Positions 18,487 to 62,408 are shown, counted from the first letter of the stretch. The stretch: DNA of 64,000 nucleotides from Candidatus Bipolaricaulota bacterium (GCA_028277345.1 JANQGM010000011.1:206-64205), one strand, 5' to 3'. A program made the numbers and translations. Notes: a model not told the origin generated them from the sequence alone.

Positions 18487-18494
18487 GAGGGACA

Positions 18495-20033
18495 TTGGCG
18501 GACAACAGCAACGGCGCACTCGCAGCGAAGCTCTGGTCCTACTGCCATCTGCTCCGCGACGATGGACTGAGCTACCAGGACTATCTCGAGCAACTCACTT
18601 TCCTGCTCTTCCTCAAAATGGCTGAAGAGCGCGAAAACATGACTGGGGAACCGACGCCGATTCCCGAAGGCTATCGGTGGAGCAACCTATCAGCACCGGC
18701 GATGACAGGCGAGAAGCTGGAGGCGCATTACCGCAAGACTTTAGAGGAACTAGCCAAAGCATCGGGTATGCTCGGGCTTATCTTCCGCAAGAGCCAGAAC
18801 AAGATTCAGGACCCGGCCAAGCTGCGCCAACTCATCATCGAACTCATTGGTAAAGAAGACTGGCTATCCATGACGTCCGACGTGAAGGGCGATGCCTACG
18901 AGGCGTTGCTGGAACGGAACGCCCAGGACACAAAGTCAGGCGCAGGCCAGTACTTCACCCCTCGCCCGCTGATCGATGCTCTCGTGGACTGTGTCCAGCC
19001 ACATCCGGACGAGGTCGTGTGCGATCCGGCCTGCGGTACCGGAGGCTTCCTACTCTCGGCCTATCAGTTCATGAGCAAGGGCGAGCTTGATCGGGATGAG
19101 AAGCGACATCTGAAGTACCACGCGCTTCGGGGCGTAGAACTTGTGGATGGCGTCAGCCGCCTCTGCGCGATGAACCTCTTCCTTCACGGCATCGGCCCGG
19201 ATGACGGCGAGTACGAGCCACCCATTCGCACCGACGACAGCCTGCGTAATGAACCAGCAGAACACTACCCGGTCGTCGTCACAAATCCGCCATTCGGGAA
19301 GAAATCGAGCATCACCATCGTCAATGAAGCGGGAGAGACCGACAAACAGGCAATCAGCTACAACCGTCCTGACTTCTGGACCACAACCACCAACAAGCAA
19401 CTCAACTTCGTCCAGCATATCAAGAGTCTGCTTGCCCAGAACGGCCGCGCCGCTGTCGTCGTGCCCGACAATGTGCTCTTCGAAGGTGGCGCGGGCGAGA
19501 CCGTGCGGCGGAAGCTGATGCACGAGTGTAACCTCCACACCATCCTGCGCCTGCCAACCGGCATCTTCTATGCCCAAGGCGTGAAAGCGAACGTCATCTT
19601 CTTCGAGCGCAAGCCCGCCAGTGAGACACCGTGGACAAAGACCGTCTGGATCTACGATCTACGCACCAACAAGCACTTCACCCTCAAGCAGAACCGTATG
19701 AAACGCGCCGACCTCGACGAGTTCGTTGCCTGCTACAACCCCGAGAACAGGCACGAACGAACGCCGACCTGGTCCGAGGGGAATCCTGATGGCCGCTGGC
19801 GCGCCTATGCCTACGACGAAATCATCGCCCGCGACAAGGCTAGCCTCGACATCTTCTGGCTCCGCGACGAAGGCCTCGAAGATAGCGCCAACCTCCCAGA
19901 TCCCGACATCCTCGCCGCCGAAATCATCGAGGACCTCCAATCCGCCCTTGAAGAACTCCAGGCCATCTCTGTCGACCTCGCCCAAACCCCAGGAGCTCAA
20001 GAAAGGAGAAGAAATGCAAACACCTCCCAGTAG
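18495..20033 (+). CDS. hsdM: Type I restriction-modification N6-adenine DNA methyltransferase subunit (HsdM)
   Basis: HsdM_N domain, SAM motif I (DPACGTGGFL), motif IV NPPFG. Confidence 0.9.
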   Translation: MADNSNGALAAKLWSYCHLLRDDGLSYQDYLEQLTFLLFLKMAEERENMTGEPTPIPEGYRWSNLSAPAMTGEKLEAHYRKTLEELAKASGMLGLIFRKSQNKIQDPAKLRQLIIELIGKEDWLSMTSDVKGDAYEALLERNAQDTKSGAGQYFTPRPLIDALVDCVQPHPDEVVCDPACGTGGFLLSAYQFMSKGELDRDEKRHLKYHALRGVELVDGVSRLCAMNLFLHGIGPDDGEYEPPIRTDDSLRNEPAEHYPVVVTNPPFGKKSSITIVNEAGETDKQAISYNRPDFWTTTTNKQLNFVQHIKSLLAQNGRAAVVVPDNVLFEGGAGETVRRKLMHECNLHTILRLPTGIFYAQGVKANVIFFERKPASETPWTKTVWIYDLRTNKHFTLKQNRMKRADLDEFVACYNPENRHERTPTWSEGNPDGRWRAYAYDEIIARDKASLDIFWLRDEGLEDSANLPDPDILAAEIIEDLQSALEELQAISVDLAQTPGAQERRRNANTSQ

Positions 20034-20508
20034 TCCCCAACTCAACGGATACCAAGAATCACTGGAGCTGGTAAGGTATGAGGGGAGCCTACTGTGGCAG
20101 ATCTTTGGAGCGTTTCTGCTTGCACACACAGTCTTCCTTGGGTTTGCTTTGAGCCTCGCTCTCACTGAAGACGCGCTTGCTCAGTGGCAACTGGGATCGT
20201 TCCTTCTCGGACTCATGGGCCTTCTTCTTTGCCTGCCCTGGTGGTCGTGTTTCCGGCGCAATTCCATCTACTACATCTTTCGCATGGCACAAGCCCGGGA
20301 GAAGGAACCGGTGGGATGGGATCTTGTCGCGGGCAAGGGGAAGAGACTCGCCGAGGGGGAGTGTGTACAGGTTGGAGGTGAATGCCATCAGATCCGCGGT
20401 GTTTCACGATGGCTTCGTACCAGAAGAGCCGTTCCGCTCCTGATCATTGCCTTTGCGTTGGCGTACGCTTTCGTGGTCGCTGCGAGTGGTCCCTGGTGGA
20501 TCAAATGA
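20014..20508 (+). CDS. Small 3-4 TM membrane protein, translationally coupled to hsdM (start overlaps hsdM 3' end)
   Basis: 164 aa from ATG 20014 with AAGGAGAAGAA RBS; three hydrophobic helices; longer ORF-track start (19726) rejected because it overlaps hsdM in another frame. Confidence 0.55.
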   Translation: MQTPPSSPQLNGYQESLELVRYEGSLLWQIFGAFLLAHTVFLGFALSLALTEDALAQWQLGSFLLGLMGLLLCLPWWSCFRRNSIYYIFRMAQAREKEPVGWDLVAGKGKRLAEGECVQVGGECHQIRGVSRWLRTRRAVPLLIIAFALAYAFVVAASGPWWIK

Positions 20509-20562
20509 TGTGCTTTCGTGGATTCCCTACTGGCAGAGCCCTGAAATCTCAAGGAGACCGAG

Positions 20563-21492
20563 ATGCTGATATCAGAGGCTGAGCAGTACCACGCTGCACC
20601 TTTCGAGTCAGAGGCCGAGCTCGAGCAGGTTGTTTGGGAGAACTCGGAACTCCTCTTCGGCGCAAACGCCATCTTCCTTCCCAAAGCTAAGATAGGAATC
20701 TCAAGCAAGGCTCAGACAATCCCGGATGGATTCGCCATCGACCTTGAGTCCAATCGCTGGTTCATCGTTGAAGCCGAGTTGGCGTCTCATGGAACCTGGC
20801 ACCACATCGCGCCTCAGATCTCCAAGCAGGTCACTGCACTTGAGGCTCCAGAGACTCGCGAGAAAATCCTGGGAATGGCTCTGGCCGCGATTCAGGATGA
20901 TGAGCAGGTCAAAGACGCGATCGCGGATCTGGGCATCCCTGAGATTGAGATTCACGGCAGGCTACAAGCAGTCTTGAGGAAGCCACCAGTCGTCGCCATC
21001 CCTATCGATGCTGTTCCAAGAGACCTTGAATCTTGGACACGCTCACTCAAGTACGATGTGCAGACGTGGATTATCGAGAAGTACGTCACGCTCGACGGCA
21101 CGAAGGTCATGTACTCCCTGCCTGAGCAGAACAGACCAACGATTCCAACACCTCGTGACGACGGGAACTCCGGCTCCACAGGCACGCAGCCCTATGCGGA
21201 TCTTCTCAATGCTGAGATGATCCAGGTCGGGCAGAAGGTGCACATGAAGTACGGCCCGAAGAGCGGACGCAAGGAGATTTTCCACGGCCTCTTGCGCGAA
21301 GAGGGTGTAGAAGTCAATGGGCGGGTCATGTCACTCAGCACCGCCGCACTGCTTTGCATTCGAACGATCAACCCTGCGCGCAAATCCGTCAATGGCTGGA
21401 AGAAATGGAAGACTGAGGACGGCGATACCCTAAACGAGATCTATGCAAGATACGAACAGCAGGCTGCAGAAACCGAGAAAGAGAGTGACTAG
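20563..21492 (+). CDS. Two-domain hypothetical protein: N-terminal PD-(D/E)xK-like nuclease core (IPDGFAID...WFIVEAEL), C-terminal ~100-aa domain of unknown function (KYGPKSGRKE...GRVMSLSTAALLCI)
   Basis: Motif-level resemblance to restriction-endonuclease fold; defence-island context. No catalytic Lys unambiguously placed. Confidence 0.5.
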   Translation: MLISEAEQYHAAPFESEAELEQVVWENSELLFGANAIFLPKAKIGISSKAQTIPDGFAIDLESNRWFIVEAELASHGTWHHIAPQISKQVTALEAPETREKILGMALAAIQDDEQVKDAIADLGIPEIEIHGRLQAVLRKPPVVAIPIDAVPRDLESWTRSLKYDVQTWIIEKYVTLDGTKVMYSLPEQNRPTIPTPRDDGNSGSTGTQPYADLLNAEMIQVGQKVHMKYGPKSGRKEIFHGLLREEGVEVNGRVMSLSTAALLCIRTINPARKSVNGWKKWKTEDGDTLNEIYARYEQQAAETEKESD

Positions 21493-21536
21493 CAAGTACA
21501 AGTTCTCGAATCGACTGCATTGGATGTAAGACCCTG

Positions 21537-23018
21537 ATGATCACTGCATCAATGCTCTATAGCTTCTCGTGCTGCCCACACCGGGTTACGCTCGACCTAT
21601 TCGGAGATCCTACTGTGAGGGATCCCATCAGCCCTTTCGTTCAACTGTTTTGGGAGCGGGGGCATGCCTTCGAGGTTGACACCATCAAGAACCTCGGAGT
21701 TCCCTTTCTCAACCTGCGTGATGTCCCGCTTGCCGAAAGAGAGGAATTGACCTCGCGCGCCATGGTGCAGGGGGAAGAGCTAATCTATGGAGGCCGGATC
21801 TCTCATAGCAATTTGCTCGGTGAGCCCGATCTCTTGCGGAAGACAGATGACGGCTATATCCCAGGCGACATCAAGAGCGGAGCAGGTTTGGAGGGCACGT
21901 CCGAAGAGGTGACCGGCAAACCCAAGAAGCAGTACGCTCTGCAGCTCGCGCTGTATTCCGACATCCTGCAAAGAAAAGGGTCAGCACTCACCCGCGATTC
22001 CTTCATTTGGGATATCCATGGGCAGGAAGTTGTCTATAACCTTTCGGAGCGTCGTGGCCCCAGAACACCTCACACCATGTGGGAGGAGTATGAGGACGCG
22101 CTGGAGACAGTCACCGGCATTTCGAAGAAAGCGGTCGAGACTCAGCCCGGATTGATCGGTGAGTGCAAGCTTTGTCCATGGCAAAGCCACTGCCGCCGGG
22201 AAATCCTGCGAGCGGATGATCTGACCTTGATCACGAGCCTCGGCCTGAGCAAACGATCCGGATTCCCTCCTGAGATTCGCACGGTTCAGGCCTTGGCGGA
22301 TGCCGATATCGAGACGTACATCCAAGGAAAGAAGACAGCGATTCCTGGGATTGGCGCGAACACCTTGCGGACCTTTCATGCCCGCGCCGTACTGCAGAAA
22401 ATGCCTAATGCAATCCCCTATTTCACAGACCCGGTCGACCTTCCCAGGTCTCCCATCGAACTATTCTTCGATATCGAAACCGATCCATTCCGCGATCTCT
22501 GCTATCTGCACGGTTTCGTCAAACGCGAACATGGGAACAACGATTCGGAAGAATTCATTGCGTTCACGGCTGATGAAACCACCCCAGAGCAGGAGAAGGC
22601 AGCTTTCGCTCAAGCGTGGGAATTCGTTCAGGAATACAGCGATGCCTTCGTCTATTACTACTCACACTATGAGCGAACGACGTGGAAGAAGCTGGCCCGA
22701 CGCTATCCGGATGTAGCATCCGAGGACGACGTGATAGCCCTGTACGAGCAGCCGCGCTTCGTTGATCTGTACAATGATGTCGTGCGATCGAAGATGATCT
22801 GGCCCACGCATTCCCTGTCCATCAAGCCGTTGGCCAAGTCCATCGGATTCCAATGGCGAGACACTGATCCTTCTGGAGCTGCATCGGTTCAGTGGTTCAA
22901 TGACTGGGTGGAGTCCGGCAACGTAACCATCTGGAATCGCATCCTCCAATACAACGAGGATGACTGCCGAGCCATGCGCATCCTCGCCGATGAACTCCGA
23001 CGATTGGAAAGCTCGTAG
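21537..23018 (+). CDS. RecB-family nuclease, TM0106 type (Cas4-like N-terminal PD-(D/E)xK with Fe-S cysteines + C-terminal RNase H-like exonuclease domain)
   Basis: N-terminal Cys (SCCPHRV), DIK motif, C-x2-C-x5-C (CKLCPWQSHC), HhH-like segment, then 'LFFDIETDP' RNase-H-like acidic motif. Confidence 0.75.
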   Translation: MITASMLYSFSCCPHRVTLDLFGDPTVRDPISPFVQLFWERGHAFEVDTIKNLGVPFLNLRDVPLAEREELTSRAMVQGEELIYGGRISHSNLLGEPDLLRKTDDGYIPGDIKSGAGLEGTSEEVTGKPKKQYALQLALYSDILQRKGSALTRDSFIWDIHGQEVVYNLSERRGPRTPHTMWEEYEDALETVTGISKKAVETQPGLIGECKLCPWQSHCRREILRADDLTLITSLGLSKRSGFPPEIRTVQALADADIETYIQGKKTAIPGIGANTLRTFHARAVLQKMPNAIPYFTDPVDLPRSPIELFFDIETDPFRDLCYLHGFVKREHGNNDSEEFIAFTADETTPEQEKAAFAQAWEFVQEYSDAFVYYYSHYERTTWKKLARRYPDVASEDDVIALYEQPRFVDLYNDVVRSKMIWPTHSLSIKPLAKSIGFQWRDTDPSGAASVQWFNDWVESGNVTIWNRILQYNEDDCRAMRILADELRRLESS

Positions 23019-28970: not shown

Positions 28971-29109
28971 CTCATCCGCTTCAGTCGCTGTGGATACTCA
29001 TAGACTTGGGAATCGTTGACATGGTTCGGCGACAACGCGAAGACTCCATCTCTTCTTCATCACCCGTCCACACCCATCGTGTTTTCTAGTGTGGGAGGAT
29101 GGAAAAGAT

Positions 29110-29841
29110 ATGGATGCTGAACGCAAGACGAAACCCGCATGTCAGCCGCTCGTTATTATTGCGATTCTTGCCGTTGTCGCTCTGGTCGTTGGATTGTTGA
29201 TTCGCCAGCCGGCACGAACGGCAGACGCTGCAGCGAAAGAGGAAACCGAGATGGGCACAGATGTCACCGAGAATACCGAGGTTAAGGAAGCCATCTTCGC
29301 GGGCGGCTGCTTCTGGTGCATCGAGGCCGCCTTCGAGTTGATGCCGGGCGTGGTTGAGGCCATCTCCGGCTATACCGGCGGACATGTCGAGAACCCGACG
29401 TATCAGCAGGTGATCACCGGAACGACCGGGCACTACGAAGCCGTACTCGTTCGCTACGACCCGGCACAGGTCACGTACGCGCAGTTGCTCGAGCAGTTCT
29501 GGCGGAACATTAACCCCACCGATGAAGGCGGACAGTTCTACGACCGCGGGAGTCAGTACTCGACCGCCGTCTTCTATCTGGATGACGAGCAGCGGGATCT
29601 AGCCGAGGCATCGAAGCAGGAGCTTGAAGAATCCGACGTCTTCGACCATCCCATCGTCACGCAGATTCTTCCGGCGTATCCCTTCTACGTGGCCGAGGAT
29701 TACCATCAGGACTACTACAAGACCTATCTGGCACAATACAAGGCGTACAGCACAGCGTCCGGACGTAAAGCCTATTTGGAAGAGACCTGGGAAGATCAAG
29801 ACGATGTTTCGCTGTTGCCGGATGAGGAATCGGACCCCTAA
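29110..29841 (+). CDS. msrA: Peptide-methionine (S)-S-oxide reductase MsrA, membrane-anchored
   Basis: GCFWC active site; N-terminal TM anchor; GGGAGG RBS before ATG 29110. Confidence 0.85.
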   Translation: MDAERKTKPACQPLVIIAILAVVALVVGLLIRQPARTADAAAKEETEMGTDVTENTEVKEAIFAGGCFWCIEAAFELMPGVVEAISGYTGGHVENPTYQQVITGTTGHYEAVLVRYDPAQVTYAQLLEQFWRNINPTDEGGQFYDRGSQYSTAVFYLDDEQRDLAEASKQELEESDVFDHPIVTQILPAYPFYVAEDYHQDYYKTYLAQYKAYSTASGRKAYLEETWEDQDDVSLLPDEESDP

Positions 29842-51665: not shown

Positions 51666-52124
51666 ATGAGGATTCAATCCTTGAGAGTCGGCCTGGTCAT
51701 CGCCGTCACGCTCGCCACGGTTGGCGGAATCGCCCTATCCGTCCAAGCGGGGCGATCGGAGTTCGGATTCGGACTGCCCGTCACCACATCGTTCAGCTTC
51801 TCATCCTACAGCGTCGCGTTTGATGCGTACTATCGCTTGCTTGGCTCCCTGCTGGCTTGGGAAATCGCGCTTCAGAGCAACCCCAGCTTCAGCAGTCTTT
51901 ACCTACGGAACACACTGGCCACGGCGGGCGCGATCCACCTGTGTATCGGCCACATCACGAATCTGATGCCCTACTTTGGCTCCACCGCCTTCACCGTGGG
52001 CCTTGGCGTGACATTGGGGCGGCTCCTCGTGTTCAGAACAGCGTTCAATCTCGCTTTCTCATACAGCATGGGAAGCTTCTATTTCTTCCCAGAGATTCGT
52101 TTCCAAGTCGGAGTCGACCCGTAG
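51666..52124 (+). CDS. Hypothetical exported protein
   Basis: Signal peptide; AAAGGAGG RBS; no motifs. Confidence 0.45.
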   Translation: MRIQSLRVGLVIAVTLATVGGIALSVQAGRSEFGFGLPVTTSFSFSSYSVAFDAYYRLLGSLLAWEIALQSNPSFSSLYLRNTLATAGAIHLCIGHITNLMPYFGSTAFTVGLGVTLGRLLVFRTAFNLAFSYSMGSFYFFPEIRFQVGVDP

Positions 52125-52520: not shown

Positions 52521-53597
52521 GTGCCGCCGGAATGGATGGAGTACTTTGTCGACGTGTTGATGAACGGGGTACGACGGCTGGCGGCCAGCAGAAGCGTGTG
52601 GACAGGCCTAATTATTTGTGCAATCTTGGTCCTCACCCTCGGCTCCATGTTCTCCATTCGTCGCGTCCGTCAATCGCTACTTCAACGCGCCATCCGCGAT
52701 ACCACCTTGACCGCCGAATCATTTGCGACCGCCGTTGCCCAGTGGCTAGACGAAGACGAACTATCGACCCTTCAACGGGTCGCCCAGATTATGCTCGCGG
52801 GAAGCTCATTGTACGTTCACGTCGTCGACCGGGGCTCGCTGATCCTCCGCGAAGACCACCCGGCATTGAACACAATCGTCGAGCCACTCAATCTTCAAAT
52901 TGAAGCGTTGTCGCGAACCGAGGTCTCGTTTGTGCGTTTCGGCTCTACGTGGTGCCTCGATGCTCGCGTGCCGTTGACCAAGACCGAGATTCCCCAGGGA
53001 TACATACGTATCGGGACGGATGTGGGATTTCTCAAGGGAAAGGTCGTGAGCACCGGGCTGCAAGTGGGGGGGGCAAGCGCAGGCATCGTCACCCTCTTGT
53101 GCGGCTTGGCGTGGGGCATGCAGCGCCGCTACCGCTCCTCGCACGATGGTGTATCTCTGCCCGTAGACGGCGAGGCCGTCGATCCAGCCTCCGATGAGCC
53201 CCGAAACCCGCTGGATATGCAGCGAGGCCCGCTACGCATCGACATCTCGCTCAAATCGGCGTCACTGAACGGACAGAGCCTCAGCTTGCCGCCCAAACTC
53301 TATACCTTGTTATGCCTGCTTGCCGAGAACGACCACCGCGTGGTTGCCGAAAATGAAATCGTGGAAGCGATCTGGCCACCTTCCTTCCGCGCGTCGTCGA
53401 ATGATGTCCGCCAATGCATCCATCGCTTGCGAAAAGGGCTTCGAGAAGCGAGCCCGGGCGCTGAGCGGAGCATTGTCAATGTCAAGGGATTCGGGTATCG
53501 CTTCGATCGTACGAACCTGTCCGAAAGCCCAAGGGGCGCGGAAGACGCGTCTTCCCCCACTCAGAAGGGGCCATCGCTGGAAAGGAGTATCGAATGA
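52521..53597 (+). CDS. Membrane-tethered transcriptional regulator: 2 TM helices flanking a periplasmic sensor loop, C-terminal OmpR/PhoB-type winged-helix DNA-binding domain (no kinase/receiver)
   Basis: TM1 ~res 27-47, TM2 ~res 178-202; C-terminus 'LYTLLCLLAENDHRVVAENEIVEAIWP...VNVKGFGYRFD' = Trans_reg_C signature. Confidence 0.65.
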   Translation: MPPEWMEYFVDVLMNGVRRLAASRSVWTGLIICAILVLTLGSMFSIRRVRQSLLQRAIRDTTLTAESFATAVAQWLDEDELSTLQRVAQIMLAGSSLYVHVVDRGSLILREDHPALNTIVEPLNLQIEALSRTEVSFVRFGSTWCLDARVPLTKTEIPQGYIRIGTDVGFLKGKVVSTGLQVGGASAGIVTLLCGLAWGMQRRYRSSHDGVSLPVDGEAVDPASDEPRNPLDMQRGPLRIDISLKSASLNGQSLSLPPKLYTLLCLLAENDHRVVAENEIVEAIWPPSFRASSNDVRQCIHRLRKGLREASPGAERSIVNVKGFGYRFDRTNLSESPRGAEDASSPTQKGPSLERSIE

Positions 53598-55042
53598 CGC
53601 GCAAATGCCTGCCTATCGCCTTCGCGTTGGGTGCCATCCTCGTTCTGTGTTCCTGCATCGCGTGGGGAACGGGATTTATGTTCAGCGGAGAACCTCTTCG
53701 CGATCTCTCGACGCTTGCCGATGCCGTCGAGTTTGCGCTCTTCCTATCCAAGAACGCCCTCTTGAGCCCTAGCACTGCGGACCTTGGCGCCACCAGCCGT
53801 GAGGTTGTCGCACTGTTACGCGGAGACGTCGTCGACGGGTCCACCCCCTCGAACATCGGATTGCTCGACGGCCTTCAACTGATCCAAGGCGGTATCGATC
53901 AATTGGCGCTTCCGGATTCCACGCGGTGGGAAGTCGATCGCACCCTGCGGCGTATCGTCTCGCTCCTTGAGGCAACGGAACGTGAGATGGCGGCGATCGC
54001 CGATGCATCGTCCAGCGACCCGGAAACCGCCATGTTGCGTGCCTATGCCTACATCGCCGCCGCCCTAGGAAGTGAGGGATTGACGTCCCATCTGCCCGGC
54101 ATCCTCACTGTCATCAATCTTCTTCCCAATGCGACGATCACCGTCCTGCCAGGGGAGTCGTTGCAGAGCGCGATCGATGATCTCCTTCCCGGCGGAACGT
54201 TGCTGTTGGCCTCGGGCATTCATGAGATACGGGGAACGCTTCGCATTGAGAAATCGGTCACCATCGAAACGCAAACAATGGGACAGTCTCCAACCGAAAT
54301 CCGCGCCATGCCCGCCCAACCCCCCTATCCTGCCATTCACATCACCAACGACAGCGACTCAATACCGATACAAGTCCAACTCTCGTCTCTGACCATTGCC
54401 AACGCCCGAGACGGCATCATTGCAGGCGACATCTTTTGGGGTCCCATTGAGCTAACCCTAAAGGACGTGACACTTGAAGCCTGCCTTCGCGCGGGCCTGG
54501 CGCTCTCAGGAGCCGCCGCCGTCCTTGAGGCATGCGCCATCCGCGACAATGGCGAACTGGGCGTGGTCGCTTCCAGGGGGGCTCGCGCCATTCTCGAATC
54601 CTGCACAATCACCGCGAATGGCTCGCTAGAGTACGCCCGGGCGTCCTATCGCATCACGAGCGGCATTCACGTTGTCGATGATGCCGCCGTCACCCTTTCC
54701 AACTGCTCGATCGATGCCAACTTGGGATCAGGAATCCGAGCCGAGAATCAGAGCGCCGTTCATGTCAAACACTCGTCGATCAATGAAAACCTGCTCGACG
54801 GCATTCTCATGTGGGACAAGACAACCTTGGAGCTCGACGATTCGCGCGTTCTTGGCAATCAGGGGATGGGAATCCGTTTCCACGCCTCGGAGTGCGAAAT
54901 TCTCCCTGACGAATTCACGGGGAGGCACTTCGTGGGACAGGTTTCAGGACGCGGGAATACGATCCCAGCGCCAGGGGATCCCCACGCAAATGCGCTCGGA
55001 TCGGTGTGCCCGGAGGCATATGTCACACTCGCACGCCCCTGA
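53594..55042 (+). CDS. Secreted right-handed parallel beta-helix repeat protein
   Basis: Signal peptide; repeated 'NxSIxxNxxxGI' beta-helix rungs; ATGA-coupled to upstream regulator. Confidence 0.55.
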   Translation: MTRKCLPIAFALGAILVLCSCIAWGTGFMFSGEPLRDLSTLADAVEFALFLSKNALLSPSTADLGATSREVVALLRGDVVDGSTPSNIGLLDGLQLIQGGIDQLALPDSTRWEVDRTLRRIVSLLEATEREMAAIADASSSDPETAMLRAYAYIAAALGSEGLTSHLPGILTVINLLPNATITVLPGESLQSAIDDLLPGGTLLLASGIHEIRGTLRIEKSVTIETQTMGQSPTEIRAMPAQPPYPAIHITNDSDSIPIQVQLSSLTIANARDGIIAGDIFWGPIELTLKDVTLEACLRAGLALSGAAAVLEACAIRDNGELGVVASRGARAILESCTITANGSLEYARASYRITSGIHVVDDAAVTLSNCSIDANLGSGIRAENQSAVHVKHSSINENLLDGILMWDKTTLELDDSRVLGNQGMGIRFHASECEILPDEFTGRHFVGQVSGRGNTIPAPGDPHANALGSVCPEAYVTLARP

Positions 55043-55067
55043 TCCGAGCGCGTAGAATCGATGCATC

Positions 55068-56018
55068 ATGACACCACGCCTCCATGTCCTCGTCTATGTG
55101 CGCGAATCATTGCTCAGATATCGAGATCGCCTGCATGATTCCGAGTCCGTGACGTTTCATTTCTGTTGCTCCACAGAGGACGCTGAGGCCGTCATCGAGC
55201 ACGTGGACGTCATCCTCGGCTCCGTTCTTTTTCCGGCCACCCTGCTCGAAAGGGCGTTTCGCACAAAATGGATTCACGTCGCGGGCGCGGGCGTCGATGC
55301 GTTTCTTGCCGGCAGCCGTCCGTGGCGACACGATATCCTTCTGACGCGATCCAGCGTCTCGTTCGGAAACCAAATCGCCGAATACATCCTCGGACACCTA
55401 CTCGCCATGACGCAGCGCGTCTGTGATCTGCATCACCTTCAGCAGGAGTACCGATGGCAACCGCTAGAGCTTGAGTTCATCCGCGGTCGAACGCTCGGGA
55501 TCGCCGGCGCCGGTACGATCGGACGAACCGTGGCTGCTCGCGCCCGTGGAATGGGCATGCGGACTCTGGGCCTTGCCACCTCGGAAAGACACCTTCCGGA
55601 ATTCGATGCCGTCTACACTCCGCTCCAACTCGAGGCGTTCCTGCCTCAACTGAATGTTCTCGCGATTTGTTTGCCGCTCACTCCCGACACCGCAGGCCTA
55701 TTCGGCAAGCATGAGCTCGCCCTATTGCCTCCATCCGCCGTGCTTATCAACGTCGGACGAGGCGCCATCGTCGATGAAGGGGCTCTGCTTCATGCACTCA
55801 AGACCAAGCAGCTTCGCGCCGCCATCCTCGATGTGTTCGAGCGCGAACCACTTCCTACCGATCACCCATTTTGGTCCATGCCGAATGTCACGATCACGCC
55901 ACATCACTCCGGCCACAACATCCCCGATGAAATCATCGATACCTTTCTCGATAACCTGGAGCGATGGCAGGACGGCCGCTCCCTGATCGGCGTCGTGGAC
56001 CCATCGCGCGGATACTGA
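55068..56018 (+). CDS. D-isomer-specific 2-hydroxyacid dehydrogenase (PGDH-like)
   Basis: NAD-binding GIAGAGTIGRTVAARARGMG, catalytic R/E/H region. Confidence 0.85.
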   Translation: MTPRLHVLVYVRESLLRYRDRLHDSESVTFHFCCSTEDAEAVIEHVDVILGSVLFPATLLERAFRTKWIHVAGAGVDAFLAGSRPWRHDILLTRSSVSFGNQIAEYILGHLLAMTQRVCDLHHLQQEYRWQPLELEFIRGRTLGIAGAGTIGRTVAARARGMGMRTLGLATSERHLPEFDAVYTPLQLEAFLPQLNVLAICLPLTPDTAGLFGKHELALLPPSAVLINVGRGAIVDEGALLHALKTKQLRAAILDVFEREPLPTDHPFWSMPNVTITPHHSGHNIPDEIIDTFLDNLERWQDGRSLIGVVDPSRGY

Positions 56019-56085
56019 TCGGCGGCCCTTACCTTCCTCGTGCCGTACAATCACCGCATCATCTTCCCGAAAGCGAGAGTTCCCA

Positions 56086-56796
56086 ATGGTAAAACCCAAT
56101 CGATGGACGCAGCTTGCCACCATCATCTCCATGGCCCTCCTGCTTGCTCTTTCCGGCTGCGATGCGGAGCCAACGCAATCGCCCGCCCCCTCGGACACAG
56201 CATCCACAGACGCTGAACAGGCTCCTTCACCTTCGATGGGAACCTCTGACACGGATGCGGAAAGCGCATCGCCCGTTCCCGATCCAGCCCCACCCGCAGA
56301 GTCTGAGGCCGTAGCAAGTGCCACGGCCATCGACGGCATCGTCTCCGAAGGTGAATATGCCCACACGAGAACCATTGCCGATGTCGTGCTTCACTGGTCA
56401 ACGGACAACGACACGCTCACCATGGCGATGGCCGCCCCCTGCACCGGTTATGTCACTGTCGGATTCGATCCCGAAAACCGTAAGGAAGGCGGCAATTACA
56501 TCATTGGGTATGTGGTGGACGGCGTGGCCGTCGTCCGCGATCACGTCGGCACGCGCGGAAACTTGCATGAGGCGGACGTCGATCTCGGCGGCGAAGACAA
56601 TCTCGTCGCCTATGCCGGATTCGAGGCAGATGGATGGACCACCTTGGAGTTCGTCATTCCACTCGATTCAGGCGACGATCTGGACAAGCCGCTCGTGCCG
56701 GGCAACAAACATATCGTCCTGGTCGCGTATCAGCGCAACCGGGATGATTTGATCTCCGTTCACACGCGCCACGGTGTCGCGCAGGTTGAACTTTAG
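56086..56796 (+). CDS. Lipoprotein with DOMON-like domain (paralog 1 of 3)
   Basis: Lipobox LALSGC; conserved core shared with 57633 and 58476 ORFs (TGYVxxGFDP...GxNYIIG...VRDxxG...GGxDNxxA...EFVIPLDSGDxLDKPLxPG...LVAY...HTRxG). Confidence 0.6.
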   Translation: MVKPNRWTQLATIISMALLLALSGCDAEPTQSPAPSDTASTDAEQAPSPSMGTSDTDAESASPVPDPAPPAESEAVASATAIDGIVSEGEYAHTRTIADVVLHWSTDNDTLTMAMAAPCTGYVTVGFDPENRKEGGNYIIGYVVDGVAVVRDHVGTRGNLHEADVDLGGEDNLVAYAGFEADGWTTLEFVIPLDSGDDLDKPLVPGNKHIVLVAYQRNRDDLISVHTRHGVAQVEL

Positions 56797-57449
56797 CTCG
56801 ACGCGATCCCGTCGTTCTCACGCGCTCGGAGAATCGATCCCAGCGTTTTTCCGAGCTTGACCGCGCGTTGGCGGGGTTCCTCCTGTTCGGAGAAGGGCGG
56901 GGGACGATGCTCTTCTAGAATACAATCCAGAAACCCGTGTGCCGCAACGACGGAGCCAACCGCACAATCCTCGCCGAACCCACAGTCATAGCATTGGGAT
57001 ACACCGTCGGCGCGAAGCGAGCCAACGACCGGCATGAGATTGGAAGTCATGACCCTCTGGATAAATGCAAGAACGGGGGACTCCGTTCGAGACCGATCGA
57101 TGGCCACGGCGATGCCCAGTTTCCCCGCAAGGGTGAAGGTTTCCCGATGCCGAAAGCAGAACGTTCGCTCCAAACAGGCATGCCCCAGCGCATTCAGGGT
57201 TCCGTAGTAGTTGGGAGCGCCGAACACCACGGCATCAGCTGCGATCATTCGCTCGGCAATCGCCGGCCAATCATCGGAGACCACACACCGATTGTCCGCC
57301 GCGCACCCCACGCAGCCCAGACAGCCGGAAATCCGTTTGCCCGCCAAACTGATGAACTCCGTCGGCAAGCTCGTTGCATCGAGAACGGCGTGAACGGCAT
57401 CGCTGGTCACGCTTTGCGTCCTTCCGCTGGCGCTGATGCCAAGGATCAT
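56793..57449 (-). CDS. Iron-sulfur flavoprotein (Isf-like; NADPH-dependent FMN reductase fold with compact CxxCxxCx5C cluster)
   Basis: Flavodoxin-like fold; GCLGCVGCAADNRC; AAAGGAG RBS. Confidence 0.7.
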   Translation of the reverse strand: MILGISASGRTQSVTSDAVHAVLDATSLPTEFISLAGKRISGCLGCVGCAADNRCVVSDDWPAIAERMIAADAVVFGAPNYYGTLNALGHACLERTFCFRHRETFTLAGKLGIAVAIDRSRTESPVLAFIQRVMTSNLMPVVGSLRADGVSQCYDCGFGEDCAVGSVVAAHGFLDCILEEHRPPPFSEQEEPRQRAVKLGKTLGSILRARENDGIASS

Positions 57450-57632
57450 GGGTCTCCTTTCGACCGCGTAAACTTGATTTCCAGGTCAAGTATCCCACGG
57501 CAAGAGTCACCTCGCAATGCGCGTCAACGCCGATTCAGGCCTCGTCATCGCCTCCATGCGGCATCCAGGGTTTTGCTCGTGAAAACCCGAGCGATCCGCT
57601 CGCGCCTGTGAAGGCGCCGGGTTTGACGGCGA

Positions 57633-58397
57633 GTGTGTTCCCAAGGCATTCTCTACAATGAATCGTCCCCCAAGGAGGAAATCATGGGAAAAACGATACT
57701 GTATATCCTGGTTGGAACCGCCGTTGCCGGCGCACTGGCCGTTCTTCTGCTTCTTGCACCCATGACCCAGCAGCCCACAGTGATTGACGAAAGCCCTGTC
57801 GCAACGAGCATCGACACGCCCCCTGAGGACACGGCTGCCCTCCCGACAGAGGGCGTCGAGGAGGATGAGGCTGTCGACGCCATGCCGGAGACGCCCATCG
57901 CTGCACCGCCGACGATCGCCATCGACGGCACGATCGGATCCAGCGAGTACCCTCACCAAGCGGATATCGCCGGTGTCGACGTCTACTGGGCAAACGACAC
58001 CCACCGGCTTTTCATCGGGCTTGTATCGCCGGGAACAGGATTCGTTTCGATTGGGTTCGATCCCGTCCTTCAAATGGAAGGCGCCAACTACATTATCGCA
58101 TCCGTTCATGAGGGAGAACTGACGATCCGAGACGATTACGGACACGAGCCCTTGGGACATATTGACGATACCGCCCGGGGAGGCGTAGACAACATCCTGG
58201 CCGCGGCGGGCAACGAATGGCCGGATCAAACCGTCGTCGAGTTCGTCATTCCGTTGGACTCGGGAGATGCCATGGATAAGCCGCTCCGTCCCGGGCAAGA
58301 CGTCACGGTTCTGGTGGCCTATCACAGCCTCTTGGACAGCTTTACCAACCGTCACACGCGGAGGGGCAGCGGATCCATCCAATTGGATCTCTACTAG
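57633..58397 (+). CDS. Membrane-anchored secreted DOMON-like domain protein (paralog 2 of 3)
   Basis: AAGGAGG RBS; N-terminal TM anchor; paralogy with 56086 and 58476. Confidence 0.6.
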   Translation: MCSQGILYNESSPKEEIMGKTILYILVGTAVAGALAVLLLLAPMTQQPTVIDESPVATSIDTPPEDTAALPTEGVEEDEAVDAMPETPIAAPPTIAIDGTIGSSEYPHQADIAGVDVYWANDTHRLFIGLVSPGTGFVSIGFDPVLQMEGANYIIASVHEGELTIRDDYGHEPLGHIDDTARGGVDNILAAAGNEWPDQTVVEFVIPLDSGDAMDKPLRPGQDVTVLVAYHSLLDSFTNRHTRRGSGSIQLDLY

Positions 58398-58475
58398 CCG
58401 AGGACACGGTTCGCCTGATTTGGGTCGCGGCCCACATTCGTTTACAGTGCTACTGACGAATCTCCACGGGGGTGA

Positions 58476-59216
58476 ATGGCTATGTGGGCGATCGATCAGT
58501 CGGACCTTATTCTCATTGGTGTTCTTGTCGGCTTGGCGCTTTTTGTCGGCGTGCTCTTCCTCGTAACACCTTCGGACGCGCCGCAACCCGTCAGTATTGT
58601 GACTCACCCGGAAGCGCCGGTTCCCCCATCTCCGGCTGAACCACTGCCTCCACAAGAGGTTCCCATGCCTGCCGTTGAGCCTCCTCAGATCGATGTCAGC
58701 ATGCCCGAGTCTTCCTTGCCATCGGTTCCCATCGTTGACGGCATCATCCAGACCGAAGAGTATGCGCATGCCATGGAAGCCGGCGGATTTCGCGTCTTCT
58801 GGTCAAACGACGCCGCCATTCTGAGAATGGGCTTGTTCAGCCCGGGAACCGGCTACGTCGCCATCGGCCTCGACCCGGATCATCGCATGCAGGGCGCCAA
58901 CTACATCATCGGCACGGTTCGAGACGGGCAGGTGGACGTTCGCGATGATTATGGGCTAGGTCCCCTCACCCACGGCGCCGATACCGACCATGGGGGCGTT
59001 GACAACATCCTGGCCTCGGCGGGGAAGGAACTCAACGGCCAGACAACGATTGAATTCGTCATTCCCCTGGATTCCGGCGACCCCTTGGACAAGCCGTTGG
59101 TTCCTGGAGAAACGTACGAAATCCTTGTCGCCTTCCACGCGTCCTCGGATACGTTCTCCACTCGCCATTCTCAGCGCGGCTCAGGGGAGATCCGTCTTGA
59201 CGATCCGCGCCCATAG
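58476..59216 (+). CDS. Membrane-anchored secreted DOMON-like domain protein (paralog 3 of 3)
   Basis: N-terminal TM anchor; Pro-rich linker; same conserved core. Confidence 0.6.
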   Translation: MAMWAIDQSDLILIGVLVGLALFVGVLFLVTPSDAPQPVSIVTHPEAPVPPSPAEPLPPQEVPMPAVEPPQIDVSMPESSLPSVPIVDGIIQTEEYAHAMEAGGFRVFWSNDAAILRMGLFSPGTGYVAIGLDPDHRMQGANYIIGTVRDGQVDVRDDYGLGPLTHGADTDHGGVDNILASAGKELNGQTTIEFVIPLDSGDPLDKPLVPGETYEILVAFHASSDTFSTRHSQRGSGEIRLDDPRP

Positions 59217-59286
59217 CTTGATTTGCCCTTCTCATCGAGGTAGCATCCCGCTTCGTTGCAGAAACTGATGAGTGAGGACCCCAACC

Positions 59287-59970
59287 ATGCCAACGTCATC
59301 TCAACGCGCACGCCGCGCCATTCACCGTCGCGCCATTGTGCAGTGGTCAATCGTCGGCATCGTTCTCATCACGATCGGCCTGGGTTGGTGGTTTCCCTGG
59401 CTTGGTTTTTCCGTTCCCATCGTGATGGCCATGGGCGTTATCGGATCGCTTTTCAACGGCCGCTATGTCTGTGGGAACCTCTGTCCACGGGGATCGTTCT
59501 ATGACCGTTTGATGCCCCCCCTCAGCCGAAAACGTCCCATCCCGAACTGGATAAGGTCTTCCGCCTTTCGCTGGACCCTGTTTGCATTACTGATGGGATT
59601 TATGGTCTTTCGCATTCTTCAAAACCCAACGGATCCGATGCACTGGGGCCGAGTCTTTTGGGTGATGTGCGTCGTGACCACGCTCATCGGGATCCCGCTC
59701 GCCCTTCTTATTCATCCCCGAACCTGGTGTTCGTTCTGTCCGATCGGAACCGTTCAGTCCGCCATCGGAGGCGGCCGTGGCCAGCTACAGATTGATGCGA
59801 AGGCCTGCCGAACCTGCGGGCTGTGCGAGAAGAAATGCCCCATGGGATTGTCGATTGCCGAACACAGGCAGGATGAATGCCTCCCTCACCGTGATTGCTT
59901 GCGATGCTCTGAATGTGTAGCCATCTGCCCGGTCGGCGCTCTCGAATGGCCGTCTCGCCCGCCAGACTAG
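59287..59970 (+). CDS. Membrane-bound 4Fe-4S polyferredoxin (NapH/MauN-like)
   Basis: 4 TM helices + two CxxCxxCxxxCP clusters (CRTCGLCEKKCP; CLRCSECVAICP). Confidence 0.7.
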   Translation: MPTSSQRARRAIHRRAIVQWSIVGIVLITIGLGWWFPWLGFSVPIVMAMGVIGSLFNGRYVCGNLCPRGSFYDRLMPPLSRKRPIPNWIRSSAFRWTLFALLMGFMVFRILQNPTDPMHWGRVFWVMCVVTTLIGIPLALLIHPRTWCSFCPIGTVQSAIGGGRGQLQIDAKACRTCGLCEKKCPMGLSIAEHRQDECLPHRDCLRCSECVAICPVGALEWPSRPPD

Positions 59971-60050
59971 CGCCACCCCGTCACACCAAAACGTCCACCC
60001 GCTTTTCTCCGCTCCAGCGCCTATGCTAGTATGCTCAGAAGGAGGGAGCG

Positions 60051-61304
60051 ATGGCGAAACGGGGAATACTGTGTCTGATGACGATCGTCCTTACGGCTTG
60101 GGTAGGCCAAGCCGCCTCGAACCTTGAGGTATTGGAAGGAATTTTCCGGCAAACCACGGCGTACACCTATACCCTCACGTTGGAACCGGATAGCCGAACC
60201 GCCGACGCGCGAATCGCCTCGCTATCGCCCGTTGACCAGCCTTGGTACCGCGTTCAAATCATGTCGCAAACCCTGGCGGCGAACACCCCATGGGACGTCC
60301 GGCAAGACCAAGAGGACAAGAACGGCAATCGCATCGCCGAATTGCTTTGGCGGCACGCCTCCGAAGAAATCGTGATCACCCGGACCGTACAAGCCGTTAG
60401 CGAGGCGGTCTATGGCCCCATGACGCTTTCCGATCCCTATCCCATCGCCGCCGCGTCCGTTCCGTGGTCCATCCGGAGCGCTCTCCAGCCCGGCAGCCAA
60501 TATCAAAGCGACGACGCTTCCCTTCGTGCCATGGCGCGAGGAGTTACCGAGGGCAGTCTGAGTCAGTTGGATGCCGTCGTTCGCGTCCTGTCCTGGATCC
60601 GCCGCGAGGTCCGCTACGCCTGCGGGAAGGATCTCTGTGATCCCGTCTATCGGGTCGATGCGCTCGCGACCTTGGAGAAGAAGATCGGCAACTGCGTTTC
60701 GTATGCCAACCTCGCCATCGCCATGCTGCGTGCGATCGGCGTGCCTACCGTAGAGGTCACCGGCTTTGTCGCTGATCGAGCCGAATCACGCGCCGCGCAC
60801 GCATGGATCGCGTGCTATTTCCCAAGTGTGGGATGGGTTGAGTTTGAATCCGCGGACTGGATGCCCGCCTACAGGGAAGCCCCCATGACGTACCTCATGC
60901 CGCAACACATCACGATCTGGAACGCTATCGTCGACGCAGGCATTTCAAGCGCGCCCTTCTCCGAACTCCACGAAGCAACGTTTTCGATCTCTCAACGCCC
61001 GGACCTTCGCACTCACGTCGAGGGAACCGTCGCGGCCGGTCACCCCATTGCCTGGGTGATCACCGTTTCACGCCCAACCACAGACGACGCCTGGCTATCC
61101 CTGGCCATCCAGGATCTTCCGGATGGCTGGAAGGCGGCGCTCTCCGAACAGGAAGTTTTCCTTGGAGAGAACGATCTGGGCGCAACACTGGACGTCCTCG
61201 TCACGATTATCCCGTCGGCCGTTGGCTCCGGTTCCTTGTCGGTGGTCTGCCGCCAGGACGGTGAGGAAGTTGGCCGGGTCCAATTCGATGTGATCGCCCA
61301 CTGA
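60051..61304 (+). CDS. Transglutaminase-like superfamily protein (secreted)
   Basis: Signal peptide; Cys-His-Asp core 'GNCVSYANLAIAMLRAIGVPT...HAWIACYF...W'. Confidence 0.8.
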   Translation: MAKRGILCLMTIVLTAWVGQAASNLEVLEGIFRQTTAYTYTLTLEPDSRTADARIASLSPVDQPWYRVQIMSQTLAANTPWDVRQDQEDKNGNRIAELLWRHASEEIVITRTVQAVSEAVYGPMTLSDPYPIAAASVPWSIRSALQPGSQYQSDDASLRAMARGVTEGSLSQLDAVVRVLSWIRREVRYACGKDLCDPVYRVDALATLEKKIGNCVSYANLAIAMLRAIGVPTVEVTGFVADRAESRAAHAWIACYFPSVGWVEFESADWMPAYREAPMTYLMPQHITIWNAIVDAGISSAPFSELHEATFSISQRPDLRTHVEGTVAAGHPIAWVITVSRPTTDDAWLSLAIQDLPDGWKAALSEQEVFLGENDLGATLDVLVTIIPSAVGSGSLSVVCRQDGEEVGRVQFDVIAH

Positions 61305-61313
61305 TCACGCATC

Positions 61314-62408
61314 CTATTTCATCCCTGGATGATTCCCCGCGCGAAACCGCCCATTCAACGCGGCAATGGCCATCCATTGGCCGGGCAAGGAGGATGCCGT
61401 TCCCGGAGACTGAATCCGCCCACGCAGGACTGCCCCATGCAGACGTTGTGGGTCGTTGACGACCCAACTCATCGGATTGACGGTCGCATCCAGCGTACGA
61501 AGCCAAGTCTCCAGACTGCATTGTCCATCGTTCGTCCGAGGACTGTGCAGCCCGATCACGCAACCGTCTCGAAGCTCCAACGCGATTCCCAAACCGCACT
61601 CAAGGTAAAGCACGACATGCGTTCCCGCGCCCTCTCGCTCAACCGCTTGCGGCAATCGCGCATGCTCCACCGCACGAATCCAGTCCCGAACCGTCTTGGC
61701 CCGCTCGTAGTCTTGAGCATCTGCCGCGAGGTGCATTTGCCGATGCCAGCGATCCATCTGACATTGGGTGGGATGTCGAAGAAAGTTGGCCGCTCGGCGC
61801 ACGTGGTCTTGATATGCATCTGCGGAGGCCCCTTCCGCACAGGGAGCAAGACATCGCCCTTGGTCGGCTCGGTCACACGGACGATCCGGCAACGTATGAC
61901 AAATGCGTAGCGGAAAGAGCTCACGCATCGCATCGAGAATCCGGTTTCGTATTCGCCAGCCGGTGTACGGACCGAAGAGTTCCCGCATCTCCTCGCATTC
62001 CGTCAGCACAGCGAGCGACGTGCGCCCCGTTCGGGTACCCACAAAGCGAGGGAAGGCCTCATCCGTTAGAGCAATGTAGTAGTAGGAGTCTTCGTCGTGA
62101 GTAAAGCGGCTGTTGAAGAGGGGCGTGTGATGGCGAATGAGATTGCTCTCCAAAACGAGAGCCTCCCGTTCGTTGCGAACGAGAATGACGTCTATCTGAC
62201 GAATCCGAGAGATCATCTCCGATTTGCGATGGGGTGTTGATGACGTCCGAAAGTACGAGACCAAGCGGCGGCGGAGGTTCACGGCCTTGCCGACATAGAG
62301 GACACGGCCATCAGCATTCTTCATCAGATAGCAGCCTGGATGTTCTGGATAGCGGGCAGCGGAGAACGAGAACGCCCCCACCTGGCTTTCGGTTCGATCC
62401 GCGCGCAT
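61314..62408 (-). CDS. UvrC-homolog (Cho-like) GIY-YIG excision nuclease lacking UvrC C-terminal RNaseH/HhH domains
   Basis: GIY-YIG (PGCYLMKNADGRVLYVGKAVNLRRR...E), UvrC Cys-rich region, UVR motif (DYERAKTVRDWIRAVE). Confidence 0.7.
   Translation of the reverse strand: MRADRTESQVGAFSFSAARYPEHPGCYLMKNADGRVLYVGKAVNLRRRLVSYFRTSSTPHRKSEMISRIRQIDVILVRNEREALVLESNLIRHHTPLFNSRFTHDEDSYYYIALTDEAFPRFVGTRTGRTSLAVLTECEEMRELFGPYTGWRIRNRILDAMRELFPLRICHTLPDRPCDRADQGRCLAPCAEGASADAYQDHVRRAANFLRHPTQCQMDRWHRQMHLAADAQDYERAKTVRDWIRAVEHARLPQAVEREGAGTHVVLYLECGLGIALELRDGCVIGLHSPRTNDGQCSLETWLRTLDATVNPMSWVVNDPQRLHGAVLRGRIQSPGTASSLPGQWMAIAALNGRFRAGNHPGMK

Follow-up and report, generated by a model that had tools for sequence, protein, structure and literature searches.

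Tethered DOMON paralogs of a Candidatus Bipolaricaulota bacterium as candidate extracytoplasmic b-type cytochromes with facultative redox neighbours

Do five neighbouring genes of a deep-branching, almost uncultured bacterial phylum encode one system for moving electrons across the cytoplasmic membrane, and what is the function of the three exported proteins among their products? This question is raised by a stretch of 64,000 nucleotides from a Candidatus Bipolaricaulota bacterium (GCA_028277345.1 JANQGM010000011.1:206-64205; the whole stretch is referred to as the window), in which an earlier note, made from the sequence alone, had described the segment 56086-59970 as a candidate extracytoplasmic redox module of three paralogous DOMON-like exoproteins (here P1, P2 and P3), an Isf flavoprotein and a NapH-like polyferredoxin. 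All five open reading frames (ORFs) are present where the note had placed them (Table 1). We judge it fairly probable, from their sequences, that P1-P3 are tethered, b-type-cytochrome-like DOMON proteins on the outer face of the cytoplasmic membrane that are likely to act as one-electron carriers. Domain identity, topology signals, residue conservation and neighbourhood statistics were established directly, and from these we infer haem binding, the direction of electron flow and the partners.

Table 1. Positions of the genes discussed in the text; positions are in the window unless preceded by a locus number
Feature	Position	Strand	Basis or detail
P1, DOMON paralog, lipoprotein type	56086-56796	+	236 aa, ORF, Pfam DOMON, lipobox
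Isf-like Fe-S flavoprotein	56793-57449	-	218 aa, FMN_red PF03358, Cys motif
P2, DOMON paralog, transmembrane-anchored, Met/His type	57684-58397	+	Pfam DOMON, start chosen by ribosome-binding site
P3, DOMON paralog, transmembrane-anchored, Met/His type (M138, H231)	58476-59216	+	Pfam DOMON, AlphaFold2 model
NapH-like Fer4_5 membrane polyferredoxin	59287-59970	+	PF12801, four transmembrane segments, N-in
Secreted transglutaminase-core protein	60051-61304; L002:7588-8856; L006:6575-7930; L082:5748-7016		3' of Fer4_5 gene
Small signal-peptide protein	51666-52124	+	
Trans_reg_C protein and beta-helix/NosD-like protein	52521-55042		
Methionine sulfoxide reductase A	29089-29841	+	PMSR domain 67-218
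Type I restriction-modification	13551-23018 region		hsdR 13551-16433, hsdS 16430-17968, 173-aa ORF, hsdM 18495-20033
Di-His protein, examples	L068:5525-5752, L049:8511-8735, L050, L051, L053:8478-8699, L061:3778-3999, L077		

All three paralogs score above the gathering threshold of the Pfam DOMON family (PF03351; 42.9, 39.0 and 53.7 bits for P1, P2 and P3, respectively, against 32.7 bits), which, as judged from these profile scores, is far beyond chance, and they share a core of ~160 aa at 38-45% pairwise identity, in agreement with the DOMON-like common core that had been proposed. The parallel assignment to the EB_dh family did not hold, as PF09459 was matched by P3 only, at 16.6 bits against a cut-off of 33.3 bits. 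None of the three proteins matched PF03188 (cytochrome b561). The proteins also carry the topology signals of one exported lipoprotein and two exported, transmembrane (TM)-anchored paralogs, as had been claimed: the N-terminus of P1 (MVKPNRWTQLATIISMALLLALSGCDA) is a lipoprotein signal with the lipobox LALSGC (LSGC) and is followed by an Ala/Pro/Ser-rich linker and then the DOMON core, while P2 and P3 begin with hydrophobic anchors followed by Pro/Ala/Glu/Ser-rich linkers of 50-60 aa with low predicted local distance difference test scores (pLDDT). In the AlphaFold2 model of P3 (mean pLDDT 86.6), a TM helix at residues 8-29 and an 11-strand sandwich at residues 98-240 are connected by a low-confidence, Pro-rich linker (about residues 30-90). 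Foldseek matched this model to the DBH DOMON (E 5.5e-6), EBDH gamma, NxrC and the cytochrome domains of CDH and pyranose dehydrogenase, with a Foldseek probability of 1.00 for the DBH DOMON, EBDH gamma and the CDH cytochrome domain.

The residues that could bind haem were followed in three sets of sequences, namely alignment A2 of 57 Bipolaricaulota-type sequences, 229 domains from 148 representative proteins of the wider family and, as a second column count, 109 domains from the fetched loci. M138 and H231 of P3 form a Met/His pair 93 residues apart. H166, K206 and H231 are invariant in A2, and M138 is conserved in at least 90% of its sequences. Among the 229 domains, the M138 column holds Met in 201, His in 10 and Lys in 8, the H231 column holds His in 188 of the 200 ungapped domains, and the H166 column holds His in 183 and Pro in 36; among the 109 domains, the M138 column holds Met in 96, Lys in 10 and His in 1, and both His columns are invariant. 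Because the Met column varies only to His or Lys, it behaves as expected for a haem axial ligand. In the CYBDOM protein CG8399, Met286/His379 were aligned by HHpred to the Met/His haem ligands of CDH, and the pair was reported missing from sugar-binding DOMONs and from DBH (PMC10691727); the spacing of 93 residues in the paralogs is the spacing of Met286/His379. The signatures of the paralogs do not fit a carbohydrate-binding family without a cofactor, the case that the earlier note had named as one that would speak against a redox role. Four Asp of P3 (D157, D169, D202 and D205) are invariant in A2 and nearly invariant in the 229 domains, and by this conservation they appear to fit the Asp-lined metal site that lies behind the ligand pocket in the DBH DOMON (PMC4846438).

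P1 has Lys where the other two paralogs have Met (NRKEGGNYII vs LQMEGANYII and HRMQGANYII), as had been noticed before. This Lys is kept in the P1 orthologues (L004 and L045-L047; surveyed loci are given by L numbers) and in a second clade (L020, L021, L032, L055 and L060); because the exchange is conserved in two clades, we regard it as a functional variant rather than as decay. K206, which lies in the motif DKPL, was considered as an EBDH-like Lys ligand and set aside in favour of H231, because K206 is less than 60% conserved in the wider family and the motif reads DHPI in a b561-fused relative. Of the DOMON/EB_dh-type b-haem site that had been suggested from the invariant positions, a haem-ligand-like Met/His signature of the DOMON type is retained; the EB_dh type, sub-threshold by score, is not.

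A redox role of the subfamily as b-type cytochromes appears well supported by the fusions and neighbours of its relatives. A profile search over 1.84 billion representatives returned 2126 relatives (345 of them at E <= 1e-30), of which the best matches are multi-DOMON proteins, and genome neighbourhoods were compiled for 68 species-level DOMON loci. Two relatives combine seven or two DOMONs with a C-terminal cytochrome b561 (P0241, P0272); others are a five-DOMON protein from a Cloacimonadota contig, a 12-DOMON protein with EGF repeats that also matches the CDH-cyt model and looks eukaryotic, and a beta-propeller dehydrogenase with a C-terminal DOMON, the cluster of which is named 'PQQ-dependent sugar dehydrogenase [Candidatus Acetothermia bacterium]' (PQQ, pyrroloquinoline quinone) and which has the arrangement of the fungal pyranose/cellobiose dehydrogenases. 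These fused or arrayed relatives include P0257/P0393 (MCR4404189.1), P0242 and P0246. In an archaeon, the DOMON gene has as neighbours the genes for an NrfC-like Fe-S protein with a twin-arginine translocation (TAT) signal and for NrfD; multihaem cytochrome c, SCO1/SenC and the membrane proteins DUF5777 and DUF6992 are encoded near DOMONs elsewhere. Separately, DUF5777 barrel proteins are encoded 5' of the DOMON genes in two Cloacimonadota loci (L072, L074).

In 13 loci, seven of them from Halanaerobiales/Bacillota metagenome-assembled genomes (MAGs; L062-L068) and six from Acetothermia/Bipolaricaulota, the gene for a 74-75-aa protein with two TM segments begins 7-34 bp 3' of the stop codon of a lone DOMON gene (Table 1). 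This protein has two invariant His residues 14 apart in its second TM segment (K[YW]H...T[IFV]H), has no Pfam match and is not encoded in the window; two copies of it could together make up a minimal transmembrane cytochrome b with two haems, a 'split CYBDOM'.

Together, these observations suggest the following working model. Each paralog would consist of a lipid anchor (P1) or one TM helix (P2 and P3), a Pro-rich tether of 50-60 residues and a beta-sandwich of ~150 residues, the pocket of which would hold one haem b between Met and His in P2 and P3 (M138/H231 in P3) and between Lys and His in P1; a cation site lined by Asp would lie behind this pocket, as in the DOMONs of DBH and CYBDOM. Most likely, single electrons would pass between a redox enzyme of the membrane and a donor or acceptor outside the cytoplasm, much as they do through the DOMON of CYBDOM ferric reductases, plant AIR12 and cellobiose/pyranose dehydrogenases. 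With the long, flexible linkers, the haem domain could swing from the membrane donor to an acceptor in the periplasm or at the surface, and the Lys/His protein P1 would be expected to differ in potential from the Met/His proteins P2 and P3. The first Bipolaricaulota strain to be cultured is reportedly diderm, with an outer layer that resembles a toga (bioRxiv 10.1101/2025.11.21.689855); therefore, if the lineage of the window is diderm, 'periplasmic' may suit these proteins better than 'extracellular'. Haem proteins would not be foreign to the phylum, given that genes for Nar, Nrf and haem-copper oxidases are present in some Acetothermia (PMC9586279).

Several points weigh against haem binding by P1-P3. 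Neither haem nor cytochrome genes were found in those ORFs of the window that were scanned. The sugar-binding CBM9 is also among the Foldseek matches of the P3 model, and the fold by itself cannot tell haem-binding from sugar-binding DOMONs. Moreover, the combination of Met, His and Asp could bind a metal ion instead. Finally, neither phmmer of P3 nor hmmsearch with the 57-sequence profile gave a usable match among PDB sequences, and the same was the case for phmmer with the CDH-cyt-like domain of P0246; because no PDB chain is matched by sequence, the ligand assignment rests on spacing, conservation and literature alignments. DARPin matches of P3 in the phmmer search of the PDB were rejected as compositional noise.

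If the proposal is correct, it matters for how the phylum is understood. Bipolaricaulota (Acetothermia/OP1) are mostly read as fermenters or acetogens, and b-type cytochromes on the outer face of the membrane would imply an extracytoplasmic one-electron chemistry that current metabolic reconstructions ignore; candidate chemistries are metal reduction, the handling of oxidants and links to periplasmic dehydrogenases. The survey also gives handles on the bacterial PF03351 proteins, in the form of a ligand signature that includes a natural Lys variant and of a set of alternative membrane partners.

Turning to the partners available at the locus itself, P1 and the Isf-like gene are convergent with a 4-bp overlap of their ends, the Isf-like gene and P2 are divergent with an intergenic region of 234 bp between them, and the Fer4_5 gene starts 55-80 bp 3' of P3 on the same strand. 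The listed ORF of P2 spans 57633-58397 (254 aa) from a GTG at 57633; because AAGGAGG is located 6 nt upstream of the ATG at 57684, this ATG is most likely the true start. Similarly, the listed ORF of the ferredoxin spans 59272-59970, and its start is likely the ATG at 59287 because GAGGA precedes this codon and an identical database protein (P0121) has 227 aa. The five genes are flanked by genes for a 2-hydroxyacid dehydrogenase, a transglutaminase-like protein and a UvrC-like protein. G+C is even over the window (54-60%), and the locus, therefore, bears no mark of foreign origin. In a promoter and terminator scan of 54900-61500, nothing exceeded shuffles, and an inverted repeat was looked for in the region between the Isf-like gene and P2 and not found. 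The ORF caller used was crude, and GC-rich loci yielded long antisense ORFs (clusters c1 and c22) that were discounted as spurious; an Arg-rich ORF of 420 aa antisense to P2 and P3 (57507-58769, -), whose counterparts, likewise antisense, form clusters drawn from GC-rich loci, is almost certainly spurious as well.

Of the proteins encoded nearby, the NapH-like ferredoxin alone is a membrane redox protein, which makes it the best local candidate for electron entry, a possible though unproven role, yet it is a facultative neighbour. It matches Fer4_5 (PF12801) at E 1.6e-11 with 44.4 bits against a cut-off of 22 bits, and several 4Fe-4S dicluster models match as well. Hydropathy places TM segments at residues 21-39, 43-61, 98-116 and 129-147, and the distribution of Lys and Arg (6, 7 and 10 in the inner segments vs 0 and 1 outside) indicates that the N-terminus is inside. 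With one CX3CP motif, one CX2CP motif and two [4Fe-4S] motifs, the protein has the topology and motifs of the four-TM, two-[4Fe-4S] membrane ferredoxin that the note had described. For the further expectation that these parts move electrons across the membrane, however, an outward electron route is not evident, because all 13 Cys residues are in cytoplasmic segments (CGNLCP, CSFCP, two CX2CX2CX3CP and one further Cys) and the outer loops have only 3 and 12 residues. As an observation on the protein itself, it has ~225 aa and belongs to a tight family (P0121-P0240) with 55-60% identity across Thermodesulfobacteriota, Armatimonadota, Kiritimatiellae, Verrucomicrobiota and Sumerlaeota, with named orthologues in the last three, and GWW and H-W-G..FW residues in the short outer loops are invariant in the family.

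The conservation of the neighbourhood was surveyed by tblastn and hidden Markov model scans of all fetched loci together with gene calls with precomputed Pfam annotation. The suggestion that the five genes form one unit did not survive this survey, in which neither the Isf-like gene nor Fer4_5 is co-conserved with the DOMON genes. Fer4_5 follows the DOMON tandem in six loci (L002/3, L004/5, L026, L027, L029 and L082), and this order, DOMON-DOMON-Fer4_5, is found in two different synteny backgrounds; of the 11 tandem-DOMON loci that came from an unbiased scan of species-level genomes, 3 (L026, L027 and L029) have Fer4_5 next to the tandem. Over the Bipolaricaulota loci, Fer4_5 adjoins the DOMON genes in roughly one third to one half. 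It is missing from the otherwise syntenic loci L011 and L013-L015, of which L013 has the order 2-Hacid_dh, DOMON, DOMON, rhodanese, NfeD, and L014 corresponds to L004 gene for gene except that Fer4_5 and P1 are lacking. It is also missing from the tandem-DOMON loci L018, L019, L025, L030 and L031, all of which extend at least 2 kb further downstream, and in the complete genome CP070725 it is located 6 kb from the DOMON gene with seven unrelated genes between. Outside Bipolaricaulota, Fer4_5 adjoins DOMONs in 0 loci of other phyla. Fer4_5 orthologues of 69-70% identity have no DOMON gene within 5 kb (L079-L081), and orthologues of 55-60% identity stand alone in a Thermodesulfobacteriota MAG (L007), an Armatimonadota MAG (L008/L009) and an unassigned metagenome contig (L010). 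Judged by gene order, a syntenic block (2-Hacid_dh, DOMONs, Fer4_5, transglutaminase-like, rhodanese and NfeD) seems to be in decay, with its genes coming and going independently. The P2/P3-type tandem recurs in many Bipolaricaulota loci and is, to judge from this survey, the conserved core, while the Lys-type P1 is by the same comparison a separate clade that is mostly encoded elsewhere.

Two further proteins accompany these genes. A secreted transglutaminase-core protein is encoded 3' of Fer4_5 in four Bipolaricaulota loci (Table 1), directly after it in three and with one unannotated gene between in CP070725 (L006), and the pairing of Fer4_5 with this gene is about as persistent as its pairing with the DOMON genes. 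A small signal-peptide protein of 152-219 aa with alternating beta-like segments and no Pfam match is encoded upstream of DOMON arrays in seven loci (the window, L004, L012, L014, L018, L019 and L027) and directly adjoins the DOMONs in L018, L019 and L027; it may be a small outer-membrane barrel.

How would the DOMON cytochromes obtain or dispose of electrons? It is possible, although on balance unlikely, that the NapH-like ferredoxin is a dedicated electron-entry subunit that passes electrons from cytoplasmic ferredoxin or quinol to the TM-anchored DOMON cytochromes outside, with no requirement for the Isf-like protein, as a cytochrome-type counterpart of the flavinylated NapH-like systems. 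The close spacing of Fer4_5 to P3 on one strand, the repetition of the gene order in six loci of two synteny backgrounds and the invariant residues in the outer loops argue for such a function, as does the pairing of the DOMON subfamily with other membrane electron-transfer modules in other lineages; in addition, NapH-like proteins serve as modules that combine with a range of extracytosolic partners, DOMON not being among the partners described (PMC8238504). However, Fer4_5 is missing from four syntenic and five tandem loci, its closer and more distant orthologues occur without DOMON genes, and a membrane-bridging cofactor is not evident. Moreover, the positive cases all come from one phylum and, therefore, shared ancestry could account for the adjacency. 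If the pairing is real, modular NapH-like electron transfer would extend from flavinylated to haem partners.

More generally, we put forward as a tentative and rather doubtful suggestion that the DOMON subfamily is a general extracytoplasmic haem acceptor that is plugged into interchangeable membrane electron-entry modules, which may be a fused cytochrome b561, the 75-aa di-His protein with two TM segments, NrfCD or the Bipolaricaulota Fer4_5 protein. If this were the case, the locus in the window would be the haem-type counterpart of the flavin-based NapH-like systems, and its flexible tethers would carry a potential ladder made up of the Lys/His protein P1 and the Met/His proteins P2 and P3. 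The lead to interchangeable partners, including the small di-His protein, is mostly outside the window.

We also considered that P1-P3 may bind a surface ligand without electron transfer, either scavenged haem, a glycan or, by way of the Asp cluster and Met/His, a metal ion (Ca, Cu or Fe), in which case the redox neighbours would be unrelated; we regard this as improbable. The DOMON superfamily does include the sugar-binding CBM9 as well as the DBH domain, which has no haem and no sugar and has an Asp-lined metal site, the four near-invariant Asp could serve such a site, P-type ATPases (two Cu-type and four P2-type), SCO1 and YHS are encoded near some family members, and many of the hosts are fermentative anaerobes. 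However, the Met/His pair that is reportedly missing from the sugar-binding DOMONs and DBH is nearly invariant here with only His or Lys exchanges, the fusions to b561 and to a PQQ dehydrogenase are typical of cytochrome-type DOMONs, and the association with ATPases is heterogeneous. As for the ATPases themselves, their genes are found within 8 kb of DOMON genes in L024, L032, L053, L056, L058 and L073, from three phyla, and the six proteins are mixed: one is CopB-like (YHS, His-rich N-terminus), one is CopA-like (two HMA) and four are P2-type. A link to copper suggested by YHS, SCO1, the CcoG-like nature of Fer4_5 and the P-type ATPases is not relied on here, given that the ATPases are two Cu-type and four P2-type.

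The remaining gene of the five encodes, on the minus strand, a protein that matches FMN_red (PF03358; E 2.8e-13), has no TM segment and is cytoplasmic. Isf proteins are defined by a compact N-terminal CX2CX2CX4-7C motif together with the FMN_red fold. The window protein has the Cys motif CLGCVGCAADNRC at residues 43-55 (C43-X2-C-X2-C-X5-C55) and the flavodoxin-type FMN_red fold in common with Isf of Methanosarcina, and its description as a cytoplasmic Isf-type Fe-S flavoprotein was confirmed; it differs in that it has no NCBIfam equivalog match and in that the nearest PDB sequence is only 7d38 ('Cd1', 8e-7). The neighbourhood statistics already weigh strongly against a full module in which electrons pass from Isf via the NapH-like ferredoxin to the three outer haem DOMONs, and we regard such a module as very improbable: all the parts are present and contiguous, Isf and P2 diverge from a common intergenic region, and in one further locus, L036, an Isf gene of 73% identity occupies the corresponding position, but Isf is absent from all other DOMON loci examined (~70), including the other Fer4_5-carrying loci, L036 lacks the P1 gene and its sequence ends before any Fer4_5 position, and Isf is on the opposite strand and faces the same gap in crossing the membrane as the ferredoxin. 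It is likewise highly unlikely that Isf is part of an electron chain with the DOMON proteins, and the Isf-like gene is a local insertion beside the DOMONs. The protein could equally well be an oxidative-stress or a ferredoxin-linked reductase.

Among the other genes of the window, translational coupling links the gene of a membrane-anchored Trans_reg_C protein (winged helix of the OmpR type) to that of a secreted beta-helix/NosD-like protein, and this pair is located just 5' of the 2-hydroxyacid dehydrogenase and DOMON genes (Table 1); weak homologues of the beta-helix protein are encoded near the DOMON loci L028, L030, L031, L045 and L078. Methionine sulfoxide reductase A has an N-terminal extension of 66 residues and may be exported; if so, it would require an extracytoplasmic electron supply. 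The type I restriction-modification genes are followed, after hsdM, by genes for a RAMA-domain protein and for a protein with PD-(D/E)XK and RNase_H_2 domains and, further on, by genes for a nucleotidyltransferase and a Fic protein, and this region looks like a defence island.

Finally, we compared the locus with systems that have been described. A literature search returned no description of a DOMON in Bipolaricaulota or of a bacterial DOMON with NapH-like genes, and no characterised example of a bacterial PF03351 DOMON protein was found in the searchable literature. The ferredoxin has Fer4_5, four TM segments, CX3CP-type motifs and two [4Fe-4S] motifs in common with the NapH-like systems (NosR, PceC/RdhC; Meheust et al. 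2021). It differs from NapH in that it scores far below the cut-offs of the NapH models despite its Fer4_5 domain (TIGR02163, 53.7 vs 213 bits; NF007013, 49.3 vs 234 bits), and nap genes, ApbE, NapG and NapA were not found among the window ORFs scanned. A flavinylated NapH-like system is defined by an FMN_bind domain or protein together with ApbE in the cluster (PMC8238504); because no FMN_bind domain and no ApbE are present in the cluster or among the window ORFs scanned, the locus falls outside these systems.

Among haem proteins, the EB_dh gamma subunits of type II DMSO-reductase enzymes (EbdC and NxrC) have the fold in common with the P3 model (2ivf_C, 7b04_C), and their family includes proteins in which Lys ligates haem b. 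The ligand pair of EB_dh is Met108/Lys201, likewise 93 residues apart; the Lys of P1, however, stands at the Met-side ligand and not at the His-side ligand. Because the score is sub-threshold and no genes for molybdoenzyme alpha or beta subunits were found among the window ORFs scanned, we do not identify the paralogs as EB_dh gamma subunits. The cytochrome domains of cellobiose dehydrogenase and PQQ pyranose dehydrogenase (AA8) also have the fold of the P3 model (Foldseek 4qi3, 1d7b and 6jt6) and use Met/His-ligated haem b as a built-in electron shuttle, but identity is only about 10-16% and the paralogs are not fused to any dehydrogenase. AIR12 is reportedly a plant protein anchored by glycosylphosphatidylinositol, a stand-alone DOMON b-cytochrome with Met/His-ligated haem b. 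In architecture, it is closest to P1, being a lipid-tethered, stand-alone DOMON on the outer face of the membrane, and it differs in being eukaryotic and glycosylated and in having Met where P1 has Lys. The CYBDOM proteins (Drosophila CG8399, human SDR2 and the Arabidopsis CRR/HYP1 ferric reductases) have in common with the paralogs the PF03351 family, a non-cytoplasmic DOMON, a conserved Met and His with a spacing of 93 residues, acidic residues near the Met and, behind the haem site, a pocket that is likewise acidic, and the subfamily of the paralogs itself includes b561 fusions. Because P1-P3 have no b561 domain, they are not CYBDOMs; instead, each has one lipid anchor or one TM helix without His, and any membrane partner would be a separate protein that is not conserved. 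We conclude that the locus encodes annotatable, uncharacterised members of the known DOMON family that are AIR12- or CYBDOM-like rather than a new system.

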